A stretch of DNA of 64,000 nucleotides, from assembly GCF_003334765.1 (NCBI RefSeq), contig NZ_QOWT01000014.1. One strand, 5' to 3'. Source of the stretch: Escherichia coli (GTDB lineage Bacteria > Pseudomonadota > Gammaproteobacteria > Enterobacterales > Enterobacteriaceae). Below are positions 10,186 to 51,194 of this stretch, piece after piece. How positions within the stretch are numbered: position 1 is the first letter of the stretch; each line of letters opens with the position of its first letter. The notes beneath the pieces were generated by a model, which saw only the letters and a list, made by a program, of their open reading frames with translations, searched no databases and was not told the origin of the DNA. The position numbers and the translations under genes are program-made.

Positions 10186-10430
10186 ACACTGCCGGATGCG
10201 GCGCGAGCGCCTTATCCGGCCTACGGGTCGGCAACAGTTGTAGGCCTGATAAGACGCGACAGCGTCGCATCAGGCATTGATTGCCGGATGCGGCACAAGT
10301 GCCTTATCCGGCCTACAGGTCGGCAATAGTTGTAGGCCTGATAAGACGCGACAGCGTCGCATCAGGCATTGATTGCCGGATGCGGCGCGAGCGCCTTATC
10401 CGGCCTACGGGTCGTGCATCCGACAACACC
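10186..10430. repeat. BIME: tandem array of about 2.5 units of a 92-bp REP-containing repeat
   Basis: ccggatgcggcgcgagcgccttatccggcctacgggtcggcaacagttgtaggcctgataagacgcgacagcgtcgcatcaggcattgattg repeats starting at 10192, 10284, 10376 with a few substitutions. Confidence 0.9.
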
Positions 10431-44493: not shown

Positions 44494-46317
44494 TTAATCG
44501 TCTTTCGGTGCGCGGTTGGCGCGGCGACGATCGTTTTCCGTCAGGTGACGTTTACGAATACGGATAGAGGTCGGAGTCACTTCTACCAGTTCGTCATCAT
44601 CGATGAACTCCAGAGCTTGTTCCAGAGTCATGCGGATAGGCGGAACCAGAACAACGGCTTCGTCAGTACCGGAAGCACGCATGTTGGTCAGTTTCTTACC
44701 GGTCAGGCAGTTTACAGTCAGGTCGTTAGAGCGGCTATGAATACCGATAATCTGACCTTCGTAAACTTCTGCACCGTGACCGAGGAACAGCTTACCGCGA
44801 TCCTGCAGACCGAACAGCGCGAACGCGACCGCTTTACCCTGACCGTTAGAGATCAGTACGCCGTTCTGACGCTGACCCACTTCACCCGGACGTACGTCGT
44901 CGTAGTGGCTGAAGGTGGAGTACAGCAGACCAGTACCGGAAGTCATGGTCATGAACTCAGAACGGAAGCCAATCAGACCACGGCTTGGGATCACGTAGTC
45001 GAGACGTACGCGGCCTTTACCGTCTGGATTCATGTTTTTCAGGTCGCCTTTACGTTCGCCCAGCGCCTGCATTACAGAACCCTGATGCTGTTCTTCAACG
45101 TCCAGAGTCACGTTTTCATACGGCTCTTGTTTACGACCGTCGATTTCACGGAAGATAACTTTCGGACGGGATACCGCCAGTTCGAAACCTTCACGACGCA
45201 TGTTTTCGATCAGAACAGACAGGTGCAGTTCGCCACGACCAGAAACGCGGAACGCATCGGCGTCTTCGGTTTCTTCTACGCGCAGCGCAACGTTGTGTAC
45301 CAGTTCTTTGTTCAGACGATCCAGGATCTGACGAGACGTTACGAACTTACCTTCTTTACCGCAGAACGGCGAGGTGTTAACGCAGAAGAACATAGAAACG
45401 GTCGGCTCATCAACGGAGAGTGCCGGCAGCGCTTCAACGTTTTGCGTGTCGCAAACGGTGTCAGAAATGTTCAGTTCGCCAAGGCCCGTGATCGCAACGA
45501 TATCGCCAGCTTCCGCCAGATCGGTTTCGATACGTTCCAGACCGAGGTGGCCCAGCACTTTACCGACTTTCGCGTTGCGGGTTTTGCCTTCGCTATCGAT
45601 GATAGTGACCTGCTGGTTCGGCTTCACTTTACCGCGCTTGATGCGGCCAATGCCGATAACGCCAACATAGCTGTTGTAATCGAGCTGAGAAATCTGCATC
45701 TGGAACGGACCGTCAAGGTCAACGTCCGGCGCAGGAACGTGGTCAACAATCGCCTGGTACAGCGGGGTCATGTCTTCCGCCATATCTTCGTGGTCCAGAC
45801 CCGCGATACCGTTCAGCGCAGAAGCGTAAACGATCGGGAAGTCCAGCTGCTCGTCGGTCGCGTCGAGGTTAACGAACAGATCGAATACCTGATCCACAAC
45901 CCAATCAGGACGCGCGCCAGGGCGGTCAACTTTGTTGATAACAACAATCGGCTTCAGGCCGTAAGCAAACGCTTTTTTGGTTACGAAGCGCGTTTGCGGC
46001 ATCGGGCCGTCAAATGCGTCAACCACCAGCAGCACTGAGTCTACCATGGACATTACACGTTCAACTTCACCACCGAAGTCGGCGTGCCCCGGGGTATCAA
46101 CGATGTTGATACGGTAATCATTCCATTTGATAGCGGTGTTTTTCGCGAGGATGGTAATCCCACGCTCTTTCTCCAAATCGTTGGAGTCCATCACGCGCTC
46201 TTGGGTTTCGGCACGAGAGTCGAACGTACCGGATTGTTGGAGCAGCTTGTCTACCAGGGTGGTTTTACCATGGTCTACGTGCGCGATGATGGCGATATTA
46301 CGCAATTTTTCGATCAC
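44494..46317 (-). CDS. typA: Ribosome-associated translational GTPase TypA/BipA
   Basis: 607 aa; G1 motif [21 protein letters not shown]-like domain architecture. Confidence 0.96.
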
Positions 46318-46468
46318 AACTTTGCCTCAGGCATTAGAAATAGCGCGTTATTGTACACGGATTAATCGCACTACAAAACAGGATCACAAACATCCTCCGC
46401 AAACAAGTATTGCAGAGTCCCTTTGTGATCGCTTTCACGGAGCATAAAAAGGGTTATCCAAAGGTCAT

Positions 46469-46559
46469 TGCACCAACATGGTGCTTAATGTTTCCATTGA
46501 AGCACTATATTGGTGCAACATTCACATCGTGGTGCAGCCCTTTTGCACGATGGTGCGCA
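46469..46559 (+). promoter_or_regulatory. NtrC enhancer sites upstream of glnAp2
   Basis: TGCACCAacaTGGTGCT (46469-46485), aGCACtAtatTGGTGCA (46501-46517), TTGCACgatGGTGCGCA (46543-46559) match TGCACCA-N3-TGGTGCA; centred about -140 and -108 from the predicted start. Confidence 0.7.
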
Positions 46560-46590
46560 TGATAACGCCTTTTAGGGGCAATTTAAAAGT

Positions 46591-46606
46591 TGGCACAGAT
46601 TTCGCT
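46591..46606 (+). promoter_or_regulatory. Sigma-54 promoter glnAp2
   Basis: TGGCAC-agatt-TCGCT matches the -24 GG / -12 GC sigma-54 consensus. Confidence 0.8.
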
Positions 46607-46689
46607 TTATCTTTTTTACGGCGACACGGCCAAAATAATTGCAGATTTCGTTACCACGACGACCATGACCAATCCAGGAGAGTTAAAGT

Positions 46690-48099
46690 ATGTCCGCTGA
46701 ACACGTACTGACGATGCTGAACGAGCACGAAGTGAAGTTTGTTGATTTGCGCTTCACCGATACTAAAGGTAAAGAACAGCACGTCACTATCCCTGCTCAT
46801 CAGGTGAATGCTGAATTCTTCGAAGAAGGCAAAATGTTTGACGGCTCCTCGATTGGCGGCTGGAAAGGCATTAACGAGTCCGACATGGTGCTGATGCCAG
46901 ACGCATCCACCGCAGTGATTGACCCGTTCTTCGCCGACTCCACCCTGATTATCCGTTGCGACATCCTTGAACCTGGCACCCTGCAAGGCTATGACCGTGA
47001 CCCGCGCTCCATTGCGAAGCGCGCCGAAGATTACCTGCGTTCCACTGGCATTGCCGACACCGTACTGTTCGGGCCAGAACCTGAATTCTTCCTGTTCGAT
47101 GACATCCGTTTCGGATCATCTATCTCCGGTTCCCACGTTGCTATCGACGATATCGAAGGCGCATGGAACTCCTCCACCCAATACGAAGGTGGTAACAAAG
47201 GTCACCGTCCGGCAGTGAAAGGCGGTTACTTCCCGGTTCCACCGGTAGACTCGGCTCAGGATATTCGTTCTGAAATGTGTCTGGTGATGGAACAGATGGG
47301 TCTGGTGGTTGAAGCCCATCACCACGAAGTAGCGACTGCTGGTCAGAACGAAGTGGCTACCCGCTTCAATACCATGACCAAAAAAGCTGACGAAATTCAG
47401 ATCTACAAATATGTTGTGCACAACGTAGCGCACCGCTTCGGTAAAACCGCGACCTTTATGCCAAAACCGATGTTCGGTGATAACGGCTCCGGTATGCACT
47501 GCCACATGTCTCTGTCTAAAAACGGCGTTAACCTGTTCGCAGGCGACAAATACGCAGGTCTGTCTGAGCAGGCGCTGTACTACATTGGCGGCGTAATCAA
47601 ACACGCTAAAGCGATTAACGCCCTGGCAAACCCGACCACCAACTCTTATAAGCGTCTGGTCCCGGGCTATGAAGCACCGGTAATGCTGGCTTACTCTGCG
47701 CGTAACCGTTCTGCGTCTATCCGTATTCCGGTGGTTTCTTCTCCGAAAGCACGTCGTATCGAAGTACGTTTCCCGGATCCGGCAGCTAACCCGTACCTGT
47801 GCTTTGCTGCCCTGCTGATGGCCGGTCTTGATGGTATCAAGAACAAGATCCATCCGGGCGAAGCCATGGACAAAAACCTGTATGACCTGCCGCCAGAAGA
47901 AGCGAAAGAGATCCCACAGGTTGCAGGCTCTCTGGAAGAAGCACTGAACGAACTGGATCTGGACCGCGAGTTCCTGAAAGCCGGTGGCGTGTTCACTGAC
48001 GAAGCAATTGATGCGTACATCGCTCTGCGTCGCGAAGAAGATGACCGCGTGCGTATGACTCCGCATCCGGTAGAGTTTGAGCTGTACTACAGCGTCTAA
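46690..48099 (+). CDS. glnA: Glutamine synthetase (type I)
   Basis: 469 aa [40 protein letters not shown]...; adenylylation-site region NLYDLPPEE. Confidence 0.97.
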
Positions 48100-48167
48100 G
48101 TGTTTTAGTTGCCGTGGAAACTTTTCGCCTGTCTCTGGCAGGCCTGGGATCGGTGGCAAGCACATCA

Positions 48168-48228
48168 CGCCGGATGCGACGCAAATGCGTCTTATCCGGC
48201 CTACACGGTGATGATGTGGTAGGCCGGA
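48168..48228. repeat. REP element in glnA 3' UTR
   Basis: gccggatgcgacgcaaatgcgtcttatccggcctac followed by partial inverted copy gtaggccgg. Confidence 0.85.
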
Positions 48229-48272
48229 GCAGGTGAGTCGCTCTCCAACGTGAAGTTTGTCAGCTATCTGTA

Positions 48273-48296
48273 GCCCATCTCTGCATGGGCTTTTTT
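48273..48296 (+). terminator. Intrinsic terminator of glnA
   Basis: GCCCAT-ctctgc-ATGGGC hairpin followed by TTTTTT. Confidence 0.85.
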
Positions 48297-48342
48297 CTCC
48301 GTCAATTCTCTGATGCTTCGCGCTTTTTATCCGTAAAAAGCT

Positions 48343-48364
48343 ATAATGCACTAAAATGGTGCAA
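48343..48364 (+). promoter_or_regulatory. glnL promoter (-10 TATAAT) overlapped by an NtrC-type site
   Basis: tataat at 48343-48348; TGCACtaaaaTGGTGCA at 48348-48364. Confidence 0.6.
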
Positions 48365-48384
48365 CCTGTTCAGGAGACTGCTTT

Positions 48385-49434
48385 ATGGCAACAGGCACGC
48401 AGCCCGATGCTGGGCAGATCCTCAACTCGCTGATTAACAGTATTTTGTTAATCGATGACAACCTGGCGATCCATTACGCCAACCCTGCCGCGCAACAACT
48501 GCTCGCCCAAAGCTCCCGCAAATTGTTTGGTACACCGTTACCGGAACTGTTGAGCTACTTCTCATTAAATATCGAGCTGATGCAAGAAAGTCTGGAGGCG
48601 GGGCAAGGTTTTACCGATAACGAAGTGACGCTGGTCATCGACGGGCGCTCGCATATCCTTTCTGTGACGGCCCAGCGTATGCCGGACGGCATGATCCTGC
48701 TGGAGATGGCTCCGATGGATAACCAGCGCCGCTTAAGTCAGGAACAGCTACAGCACGCCCAGCAGGTTGCTGCCCGTGATTTAGTGCGCGGCCTGGCACA
48801 TGAGATTAAAAATCCGCTTGGCGGTTTACGTGGCGCGGCGCAGCTGCTCAGCAAAGCGTTACCTGACCCATCACTACTCGAATATACCAAAGTGATTATC
48901 GAACAGGCGGACCGGCTGCGAAATCTGGTCGACCGTCTGTTGGGGCCGCAGCTGCCCGGTACGCGCGTTACCGAAAGTATTCACAAAGTGGCTGAACGCG
49001 TGGTAACGCTGGTGTCGATGGAACTGCCGGACAACGTGCGGTTGATTCGTGATTACGATCCCAGCCTACCGGAACTGGCGCACGACCCGGATCAAATTGA
49101 ACAGGTCTTGCTGAATATTGTGCGCAATGCGCTACAGGCGCTGGGGCCGGAAGGCGGTGAAATCATTCTGCGTACCCGCACCGCGTTTCAACTGACCTTA
49201 CACGGCGAGCGCTACCGGCTGGCGGCGCGGATTGATGTGGAAGATAACGGGCCGGGCATTCCGCCTCATTTGCAGGATACGCTGTTTTACCCGATGGTCA
49301 GCGGCCGCGAAGGTGGCACCGGGCTTGGCTTATCCATCGCTCGTAATTTGATTGATCAGCATTCAGGCAAAATTGAATTTACCAGTTGGCCAGGGCATAC
49401 CGAGTTCTCGGTTTACCTGCCTATCAGGAAATAA
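48385..49434 (+). CDS. glnL: Nitrogen-regulation sensor kinase NtrB
   Basis: 349 aa; PAS-like N-terminus, H-box ([17 protein letters not shown]), HATPase motifs. Confidence 0.95.
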
Positions 49435-49445
49435 AGGTGACGTTT

Positions 49446-50855
49446 ATGCAACGAGGGATAGTCTGGGTAGTCGATGACGATAGTTCCATCCGTTGGGTGC
49501 TTGAACGTGCGCTCGCTGGGGCAGGTTTAACCTGTACGACGTTTGAGAACGGCGCAGAAGTGCTGGAGGCGCTGGCGAGCAAAACGCCGGATGTGCTGCT
49601 TTCAGATATCCGTATGCCGGGAATGGACGGGCTGGCGCTGCTCAAGCAGATTAAACAGCGCCATCCAATGCTTCCGGTCATCATTATGACCGCACATTCC
49701 GATCTGGATGCTGCCGTCAGCGCCTATCAACAAGGGGCGTTTGATTATCTGCCCAAACCGTTTGATATCGACGAAGCAGTGGCGCTGGTTGAGCGCGCTA
49801 TCAGTCATTACCAGGAACAGCAGCAGCCGCGTAATGTTCAGCTTAACGGCCCAACGACCGATATCATCGGCGAAGCGCCAGCCATGCAGGACGTGTTCCG
49901 TATTATCGGTCGGCTTTCGCGTTCTTCTATTAGCGTGCTGATTAACGGCGAATCCGGCACCGGTAAAGAACTGGTCGCTCATGCCCTGCATCGCCACAGT
50001 CCGCGCGCCAAAGCGCCGTTTATCGCGCTGAATATGGCAGCTATCCCAAAAGATTTGATCGAATCAGAACTGTTTGGCCACGAGAAAGGCGCGTTTACTG
50101 GCGCGAATACCATTCGTCAGGGGCGTTTTGAACAGGCCGATGGCGGTACATTATTCCTCGACGAAATTGGTGATATGCCGCTGGATGTGCAGACGCGTTT
50201 GCTGCGCGTGCTGGCAGACGGTCAGTTTTACCGCGTTGGCGGCTATGCGCCGGTGAAAGTGGATGTGCGGATTATCGCTGCCACTCACCAGAATCTCGAA
50301 CAGCGAGTGCAGGAAGGTAAGTTCCGTGAGGATCTGTTCCACCGCCTGAACGTTATCCGCGTTCATCTGCCGCCGCTGCGCGAACGTCGGGAAGATATTC
50401 CCCGTCTGGCGCGCCATTTTTTACAGGTTGCCGCGCGCGAACTGGGCGTAGAAGCGAAGTTACTGCATCCGGAAACCGAAGCTGCTCTGACGCGTCTGGC
50501 GTGGCCAGGCAACGTGCGCCAGCTGGAAAACACCTGCCGCTGGCTAACGGTGATGGCCGCCGGGCAGGAAGTGTTGATTCAGGATTTGCCCGGCGAACTG
50601 TTTGAATCAACGGTTGCGGAGAGTACTTCGCAAATGCAACCGGACAGCTGGGCGACGCTTCTTGCGCAGTGGGCAGACAGAGCGCTGCGTTCCGGTCATC
50701 AAAATCTGCTTTCCGAAGCGCAGCCAGAGCTGGAGCGGACGTTACTGACGACCGCGTTGCGACATACGCAGGGGCATAAACAGGAAGCGGCGCGGCTACT
50801 CGGCTGGGGCCGCAACACCCTGACGCGTAAGTTAAAAGAGCTGGGGATGGAGTGA
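49446..50855 (+). CDS. glnG: Sigma-54-dependent response regulator NtrC
   Basis: Track ORF 49386..50855 over-extended; start at ATG 49446 ([23 protein letters not shown]); receiver domain, AAA+ Walker A (GESGTGKE), GAFTGA motif, C-terminal HTH; 469 aa. Confidence 0.93.
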
Positions 50856-51090: not shown

Positions 51091-51194
51091 TGCCGGATGC
51101 GGAGAAAGTCGTAGGCCTGATAAGACGCGACCAGCGCCGCATCAGGCATCATGCTCAGATGCCTGATGCGGCGTAAACGCCTTATCCGGCCTAC
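51091..51194. repeat. BIME (three REP copies)
   Basis: tgccggatgcggagaaagtcgtaggcctgataagacgcgaccagcgccgcatcaggca ... gatgcctgatgcggcgtaaacgccttatccggcctac. Confidence 0.88.

Follow-up and report, generated by a model that had tools for sequence, protein, structure and literature searches.

Background

The closest described system is GlnZ, a small RNA (sRNA) from the 3' untranslated region (UTR) of glnA. GlnZ was reported to be induced by nitrogen starvation, regulated by NtrC, and extensively cut by RNase III (Walling et al., bioRxiv 10.1101/2022.04.01.486790). Both Hfq and RNase E were required for GlnZ, two RNase E sites were found to flank the glnA stop codon, and release from the glnA mRNA was needed for regulation by the sRNA (Miyakoshi et al., PMC9731577). 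Northern blots gave a major band of ~194 nt, minor bands of ~174 and ~150 nt, and a faint band of 213 nt, and the 3' end was reported by Term-seq (Walling et al., bioRxiv 10.1101/2022.04.01.486790). The seed was defined as 5'-UUGCCGUGGAAA-3' (Miyakoshi et al., PMC9731577). Repression by direct pairing was established with compensatory mutations for glnP and sucA (Walling et al.) and for sucA and aceE (Miyakoshi et al.), the published compensatory pairs being GlnZ-M1/glnP-M1 and G12C/aceE C-99G. Hfq RIL-seq of nitrogen-starved E. coli recovered the GlnZ regulon and added nac as a partner (PMC10954441). Hfq dependence, release by RNase E, nitrogen induction, and target repression are taken here from the published experiments of Walling et al. 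and Miyakoshi et al.

GlnZ is important because it couples carbon flux to the nitrogen supply. The mRNA of glutamine synthetase not only encodes the enzyme but is also the source of a regulator by which 2-oxoglutarate dehydrogenase, the import of glutamine, and pyruvate dehydrogenase are lowered, as was established in 2022. The present analysis adds a count of the UTR alleles in 5,426 E. coli genomes, a seed-plus-terminator module that is tied to glnA across the Enterobacterales, and the recognition of Rfam Ysr49 as the Yersinia version of GlnZ.

Locus and identity of the RNA

The window, i.e. the whole stretch of 64,000 nucleotides that was analysed, was compared with E. coli K-12 MG1655. Window positions 45224-50724 aligned with NC_000913.3 4054000-4059500 with 0 mismatches in 5,501 bp (100% identity). 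The main features of the locus, with typA/bipA lying divergently upstream of glnA, are the following.

46690-48099, + strand: glnA (glutamine synthetase, 469 aa), from the ORF list and named glnA in RefSeq annotations; parental mRNA of GlnZ
48103-48296, + strand: main 194-nt species of GlnZ (glnZ, b4836), an exact match to the annotated ncRNA
48385-49434: glnL, 3' of glnA and followed by glnG

In RefSeq NC_000913.3 the ncRNA glnZ (b4836, "small regulatory RNA GlnZ") is annotated at 4056428-4056621 on the minus strand. Its 194 nt are base-for-base those of window 48103-48296 (+), which start 4 nt after the glnA stop (48099), and the feature is therefore the annotated gene in K-12. GlnZ at this locus is thus already known, having been published in 2022 and annotated in the MG1655 RefSeq record; the glnZ feature is absent from PGAP-annotated genomes. 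It is almost certain that window 48103-48296 (+) is GlnZ of the K-12 type (class III), an Hfq-dependent, 3'-UTR-derived sRNA of the glnA mRNA, and no sequence feature contradicts this identity. The observations made here on the sequence itself are the identity with the annotated gene, the seed, the terminator, the REP pair, the fold, the target complementarity, the conservation, and the promoter elements.

A first-pass annotation had ended glnA at 48099, had proposed the following ~200 nt (48100-48296) as a likely sRNA, and had pointed to GlnZ, a nitrogen-responsive sRNA from the glnA 3' UTR. The end of glnA is borne out by the ORF list, and 197 nt separate the glnA stop from the end of the terminator. 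The link to GlnZ was correct, as judged from the exact match to annotated glnZ and from the published seed. The proposed 3' boundary stands, while the start had to be moved to 48103 for the main 194-nt species according to the annotated ncRNA. The checks suggested in that annotation, namely northern blots under nitrogen limitation, tests of RNase E dependence, and RIL-seq, are already in the literature, each with a positive outcome (Walling et al.; PMC9731577; PMC10954441).

Promoter elements of glnA and glnL

Elements of nitrogen control were searched for on both sides of the sRNA.

46469-46485 and 46501-46517, + strand: two NtrC-type palindromes 5' of glnA (pattern TGCACYNNNNTGGTGCA, 1-2 mismatches)
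46591-46606, + strand: sigma-54 -24/-12 element TGGCACAGATTTCGCT of glnAp2 (pattern TGGCAC-N5-TTGCW, 1 mismatch)
48343-48348, + strand: TATAAT, the -10 element of glnLp, read from the sequence
48347-48363, + strand: NtrC palindrome TGCACTAAAATGGTGCA, 0 mismatches, overlapping the TATAAT of glnLp

The -24/-12 element and the NtrC palindromes 5' of glnA are consistent with control by nitrogen, NtrC, and sigma-54. The palindromes are the established enhancer of the nitrogen-regulated promoter glnAp2 (quoted in Miyakoshi et al., PMC9731577). The count of the -24/-12 pattern alone was not above chance, and the assignment to glnAp2 was made from position together with published knowledge (PMC9731577). 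Since glnAp2 drives glnA under nitrogen limitation, it would also drive GlnZ. The combined glnLp/NtrC-palindrome site starts 47 nt 3' of the GlnZ terminator; glnLp is a separate, classical NtrC-repressed promoter of glnLG (literature quoted in Miyakoshi et al., PMC9731577), and it is missed by a generic sigma-70 scan because its -35 element is poor.

As a side observation, the Rfam sRNA ES222 gave a full-length match at window 46399-46506 (-), with 135.3 bits against a gathering score of 62. This match lies in the typA/bipA-glnA spacer on the typA strand, 82-189 nt 5' of the typA start (46317), where it overlaps the part of the glnA control region that binds NtrC; it resembles an RNA derived from the typA 5' leader.

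Seed and predicted target pairing

The published seed was located in the window as follows.

48109-48120, + strand: seed UUGCCGUGGAAA, a single exact copy in the window, pairing with the sucA, glnP, and aceE leaders

In K-12, 9 nt separate the glnA stop from the seed, and 151 nt separate the seed from the terminator stem. The seed is predicted to be mostly unpaired, with a mean unpaired probability of 0.68 vs 0.19-0.32 in the hairpins of the RNA. Pairing was predicted with RNAduplex between the first 24 nt of GlnZ and the MG1655 sdhB-sucA, glnH-glnP, and pdhR-aceE spacers, with 300 shuffled targets for each. Positions are relative to the start codon.

sucA duplex, -48 to -27: -20.5 kcal/mol, 4 of 300 shuffled targets as good
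glnP duplex, -22 to -11: -18.4 kcal/mol, 10 of 300 shuffled targets as good
aceE duplex, -136 to -91: -21.1 kcal/mol, 1 of 300 shuffled targets as good

The margin of the duplex energies over the shuffled controls is only moderate. The predicted sites agree with the published ones, the glnP site lying just 5' of the Shine-Dalgarno sequence and the aceE duplex spanning C-99.

Terminator, REP elements, and predicted fold

The part of the UTR that follows the seed is structured almost throughout, with the following elements.

48127-48143, + strand: short hairpin GCCUGUC-UCU-GGCAGGC, in both the MFE and the centroid structure, 3' of the U-rich RNase E site; unpaired probability 0.19
48147-48269, + strand: long imperfect hairpin of the REP pair, in both the MFE and the centroid structure
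48169-48204, + strand: canonical REP, GCCGGATGCGACGCAAATGCGTCTTATCCGGCCTAC, an inverted repeat with arms 48169-48183 and 48186-48200, aligning with other REPs of the window
~48219-48257, - strand: degenerate second REP, inverted, with tail CTGCTCCGGCCTAC, from a tail match with 2 mismatches and a local alignment to the first REP
48272-48296, + strand: Rho-independent terminator from the terminator scan, with a stem at 48272-48291 (7 pairs, of which 4 G-C), a 6-nt loop, and a U6 tail

The terminator was the only one found on the + strand by the terminator scan, in which terminator-like sites numbered 2 against 0.6 expected in a 600-nt region. The first-pass annotation had placed it at 48273-48296, right to within 1 nt (stem from 48272, T-run to 48296). 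Its hairpin alone has a predicted energy of -10.0 kcal/mol and its U tail an unpaired probability of 0.97. The terminator forms the 3' end of GlnZ and is its presumed Hfq-binding module, and the GlnZ of the window has both the U6-tailed terminator and a U-rich 5' flank.

The REP at 48169-48204 fits the ~35-nt imperfect-palindrome consensus GCCKGATGCGRCG...CGYCTTATCMGGCCTAC and carries the canonical tail CTTATCCGGCCTAC at 48191-48204. This tail (with at most 2 mismatches) occurs in 15 copies in the 64-kb window vs 0.17 expected by chance, so that the element is dispersed, multi-copy, and extragenic as a REP should be. An inverted repeat (48195-48204 / 48219-48228) joins the first REP to the second, which keeps the tail (2 mismatches) and a GGA..GCGAC head and has a 6-nt deletion and several substitutions. 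With this second, inverted REP the structured core appears to be a tail-to-tail REP pair, as in a BIME; the palindrome named in the first-pass annotation is real, but it would be one half of an inverted pair and not a single REP.

The 194-nt RNA folds with -81 kcal/mol (z = -3.81), and 0 of 200 dinucleotide shuffles were as good. In the model the REP-pair hairpin would bring the seed and the terminator close together. The internal REP was reported to form a long stem, and the long REP-pair hairpin to be an RNase III substrate, with structure probing (Walling et al., bioRxiv 10.1101/2022.04.01.486790). The minus strand of the same region folds even better than the plus strand (z = -5.16); palindromic REP DNA being expected to fold in this way, the value was not taken as evidence of an antisense RNA. 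Membership of Rfam RF02564 naRNA4 (REP-derived nucleoid-associated RNA) was also rejected: at 48141-48201 the scores of 30.4 bits (+) and 26.6 bits (-) are below the gathering score of 59.5 on both strands and reflect generic REP similarity only. Other REP/BIME clusters of the window were seen at 1318-1401, 10211-10408, 24622-24684, 41151-41164, 51111-51194, and 63825-63838; the cluster at 10211-10408 is an array of five REPs in which both the orientation and the tail type (CCGG/CAGG) alternate.

Processing and origin of the transcript

Motifs of the RNase E type (RN/WUU, the slash marking the cut) were scanned for around the glnA stop codon.

48074-48078, + strand: AG/UUU, just inside the glnA 3' end, with the cut between 48075 and 48076
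48120-48124, + strand: AC/UUU, directly 3' of the seed, matching the 5' end of the 174-nt species (48123)

The motifs predict cuts between 48103 and 48104 and between 48121 and 48122, each at most 1 nt from a published 5' end (48103 for the 194-nt species and 48123 for the 174-nt species). GlnZ174, which has no seed, fails to repress SucA (Walling et al., bioRxiv 10.1101/2022.04.01.486790), its inactivity being due to the position of the seed between the 5' ends of the 194-nt and 174-nt forms (Walling et al.). The AG/UUU motif at 48074-48078 may correspond to the upstream cleavage site of the literature, which would give a precursor of ~213-221 nt.

The 5' end of the 213-nt species has been read as that of a primary transcript from an internal promoter (Walling et al.), whereas production of the sRNA has been ascribed to processing (Miyakoshi et al., PMC9731577). 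If an internal promoter accounted for the sRNA as a whole, GlnZ would mainly be the primary transcript of a promoter inside the glnA end and not a processing product of the glnA mRNA. The TEX-enriched 5' end that gives 213 nt speaks for such a promoter (Walling et al.), but the 213-nt band is visible on long exposure only (Walling et al.), GlnZ fragments depend on arabinose when glnA is driven by pBAD, and none accumulate in an RNase E ts mutant (PMC9731577). On the side of the sequence, an RN/WUU motif lies 8 nt upstream of the 213-nt 5' end. No sigma-70-like site was found in 47900-48500 by the promoter scan; the same scan misses the known weak glnLp, so this is weak evidence against an internal promoter. 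An origin mainly from an internal promoter is judged improbable, and processing from the glnA mRNA is the preferred reading.

Allelic forms of the UTR in E. coli

The glnA-glnL junction was placed by megablast in all 5,426 of 5,426 complete E. coli genomes. The three published forms of the E. coli glnA UTR were reproduced in aligned examples, with lengths of 197 nt (K-12), 85 nt (O157-type), and 230 nt (O111-type), and in these examples the terminator and the downstream spacer are invariant. The seed abuts the terminator in the short forms; the K-12 form lacks the segment 5' of the seed and has ~150 nt, made up of the REP pair, between seed and terminator. The REP-containing K-12 form was found in 1,571 of the 5,426 genomes (29%), nearly all at 99% identity or more, and the O157/O111 backbone in the other 3,852 counted (71%). 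The O111-specific insertion was matched at 95% identity or more in 994 complete genomes. Subtraction leaves ~2,860 genomes of the O157 type, an approximate figure that assumes the glnA location of each of the 994 O111 matches.

The O111 insertion was matched at only 80-90% identity in 286 E. coli genomes. A fourth glnA UTR form was considered for these and rejected on one example (H60), in which the copy sits between nfi and hemE. This copy (L129 1201-1332) has ~86% identity to the O111-type extra sequence of E. coli EC45 (L007 438-584). The extra sequence occurs in up to 2 places per E. coli genome, which suggests a low-copy mobile or repeat element and not unique DNA, and it had no significant Rfam match. 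In a separate case, E. coli AMSHJX01 (NZ_CP030939.1 4846538-4849665), glnA and most of the UTR are absent upstream of glnL, a truncated clsB fragment adjoins the UTR remnant, and many neighbour genes are marked frameshifted; either a rearrangement or a low-quality assembly would account for the loss of glnA.

Conservation across genera

A pattern made up of the seed and, no more than 14 nt behind it, a GCCC...GGGCTTTT hairpin was scanned against one genome per species for ~100,000 species. At least 120 loci carried this seed-plus-terminator pattern. Among the 120 listed, 116 follow immediately after the C-terminal end of a GlnA on the same strand, 3 cannot be judged because their upstream DNA is too short, and 1 is unrelated; glnL follows on the same strand at 112, in most cases within 77-160 nt of the match. 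The distance from stop codon to seed varies from 8 to 320 nt in the loci listed. The conserved block extends beyond what the pattern forces and includes a U-rich run, a G at -1 (97%), and, 3' of the seed, CUUU (87-96%), all of which K-12 keeps. The genera among the matches listed include Citrobacter, Enterobacter, Klebsiella relatives, Pantoea, Erwinia, Serratia, Yersinia, Pectobacterium, Dickeya, Sodalis, Plesiomonas, and others of the Enterobacterales.

The constant module is therefore formed by the seed and the terminator, the remainder of the UTR being variable, and the same was concluded by Walling et al. and Miyakoshi et al. (PMC9731577). Separately, of the matches listed only that in a Rhodospirillaceae MAG (L048 4052-4098) has long flanks that contain no glnA; it probably arose by chance, giving a sense of about 1 false positive in 120 listed.

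The conservation bears on the view that the 3' UTR acts in cis alone, with the REP hairpin and the terminator protecting the glnA mRNA from 3' exonucleases and insulating glnA from glnLG, and that it has no trans function. REP hairpins are textbook mRNA stabilisers, the REP pair dominates the fold, and deletion of the terminator slightly lowers GlnA (Miyakoshi et al., PMC9731577). It is however the seed plus terminator that is conserved and not the REP: 3,852 of 5,426 E. coli genomes and the 116 listed loci of other genera are without the REP and keep the seed. Deletion of the UTR with the terminator kept leaves the levels of GlnA and NtrC unchanged (PMC9731577), and the compensatory mutations show pairing in trans (Walling et al.; Miyakoshi et al., PMC9731577). 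A cis role may exist alongside the trans role but cannot be the whole story, and a cis-only UTR is regarded as highly improbable next to a trans-acting GlnZ.

The possibility that the stretch encodes a small protein can be dismissed: the mechanical ORF list does hold three ORFs of 37-44 aa with TTG/GTG starts (48077-48211, 48109-48222, and 48114-48236), but none starts with ATG, all run through the REP palindromes, no Shine-Dalgarno sequence was seen upstream of them on reading the window sequence, REP-containing sequence yields such ORFs by chance, and neither the other genera nor the 71% of E. coli genomes that have the short UTR backbone contain them, so these REP-made, non-conserved frames within GlnZ were rejected. 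To our knowledge there is no ribosome-profiling or tagged-protein signal for any of the three.

Relation to the Rfam family Ysr49

Rfam 15 has no family named GlnZ, and none of its families recognises the K-12 form (window 46300-48700, E of at most 1). One family was nevertheless found to describe the same locus in another genus. In Y. pestis, RF02766 Ysr49 (Yersinia sRNA 49) reaches 159.7 bits (gathering score 95) and covers exactly the glnA 3' UTR, beginning at the base that follows the stop codon and ending in the terminator U-run; the 3' part of its consensus is the GlnZ seed plus terminator. From the Y. pestis match and the consensus, Ysr49 is therefore the Yersinia (class II-like) GlnZ under another name. 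Matches to Ysr49 were located at L127 3863-3986 (Y. pestis), L006 380-484, and L057 1916-2013.

The model gives 34.1 bits on the O157-type UTR, with O157-type and Y. artesiana scores in the range of 32-34 bits (gathering score 95). At window positions 46300-48700, which hold the K-12 form, no Ysr49 match was obtained at E of at most 1, nor was the gathering score of 95 bits reached, because the REP insertion separates the seed from the terminator. The gathering score was likewise not reached at the Y. thracica, Y. nurmii, Y. artesiana, Y. rohdei, Serratia, Pectobacterium, and Pantoea loci. With Y. pestis alone passing among the loci tested, the Ysr49 model is too narrow as a detector of GlnZ. 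From the shared locus, seed, and terminator we read the RNA of the window and Ysr49 as the same sRNA lineage, the former not being a member by the Rfam threshold. Ysr49, Yersinia, and Rfam are unmentioned in the main texts of Walling et al. and Miyakoshi et al. (PMC9731577).

Proposed mode of action

Under nitrogen limitation, phosphorylated NtrC would activate the sigma-54 promoter glnAp2, and transcription of glnA would mostly end at the intrinsic terminator at 48272-48296. U-rich sites of the glnA mRNA that surround the stop codon would be cut by RNase E, giving the 194-nt RNA, whose single-stranded 5' seed UUGCCGUGGAAA (48109-48120) would pair with the sucA, glnP, and aceE leaders and cause repression. 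Repression of these targets would steer 2-oxoglutarate towards the synthesis of glutamate and glutamine. A second RNase E-type cut after the seed (48122/48123) would convert the RNA into the seed-less, inactive 174-nt form. The ~150 nt between seed and terminator would be accounted for by the REP-pair insertion, which is predicted to form a long hairpin, to serve as an RNase III substrate, and to keep seed and terminator spatially close.

It is conceivable, although unlikely, that the REP-pair insertion is a control layer of its own in the K-12 allele (29% of complete E. coli genomes) and more than a neutral spacer. Such control would have two elements, the first being the long RNase III-sensitive hairpin and the second a seed that has been moved to the very 5' end beside an RNase E site, where one cut (194 to 174 nt) would switch the RNA off. 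The short O157-type allele would be without REP-based control. RNase III cleavage and the inactive 174-nt form have been published (Walling et al.), and turnover or dynamics were not compared between alleles in that work.

Comparison with known systems

The RNA of the window and GlnZ of E. coli K-12 (class III) are the same gene, with sequence, position, strand, seed, REP insertion, and terminator all identical. GlnZ of EHEC O157 (also EsrF; class I, 85-nt UTR) and the O111-type form (230 nt) share the locus and have an identical seed block and terminator, and both forms repress the same targets as K-12 GlnZ (Walling et al.; Miyakoshi et al., PMC9731577). They differ from the K-12 form in that a 38-nt stem-loop region precedes the seed and the REP pair is lacking; the O111 form has 145 extra nt upstream of the seed relative to the O157 type.

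Salmonella GlnZ1/GlnZ2 (class II, 185-nt UTR) likewise come from the glnA 3' UTR, are released by RNase E, depend on Hfq, carry the same seed, and repress sucA and glnP as K-12 GlnZ does (PMC9731577). In Salmonella, however, the seed adjoins the terminator and is preceded by a long non-REP segment, aceE is not regulated, owing to an extra G beside the seed, and deoD is a target specific to Salmonella (PMC9731577). More distantly, CpxQ, SdhX, and SroC resemble GlnZ in using the terminator of a highly regulated mRNA, in being cut out by RNase E, in binding Hfq, and in extending the regulon of the parental gene. These three sRNAs have other parental genes, seeds, and targets, and the REP-pair insertion within the sRNA body is an unusual feature of K-12 GlnZ.
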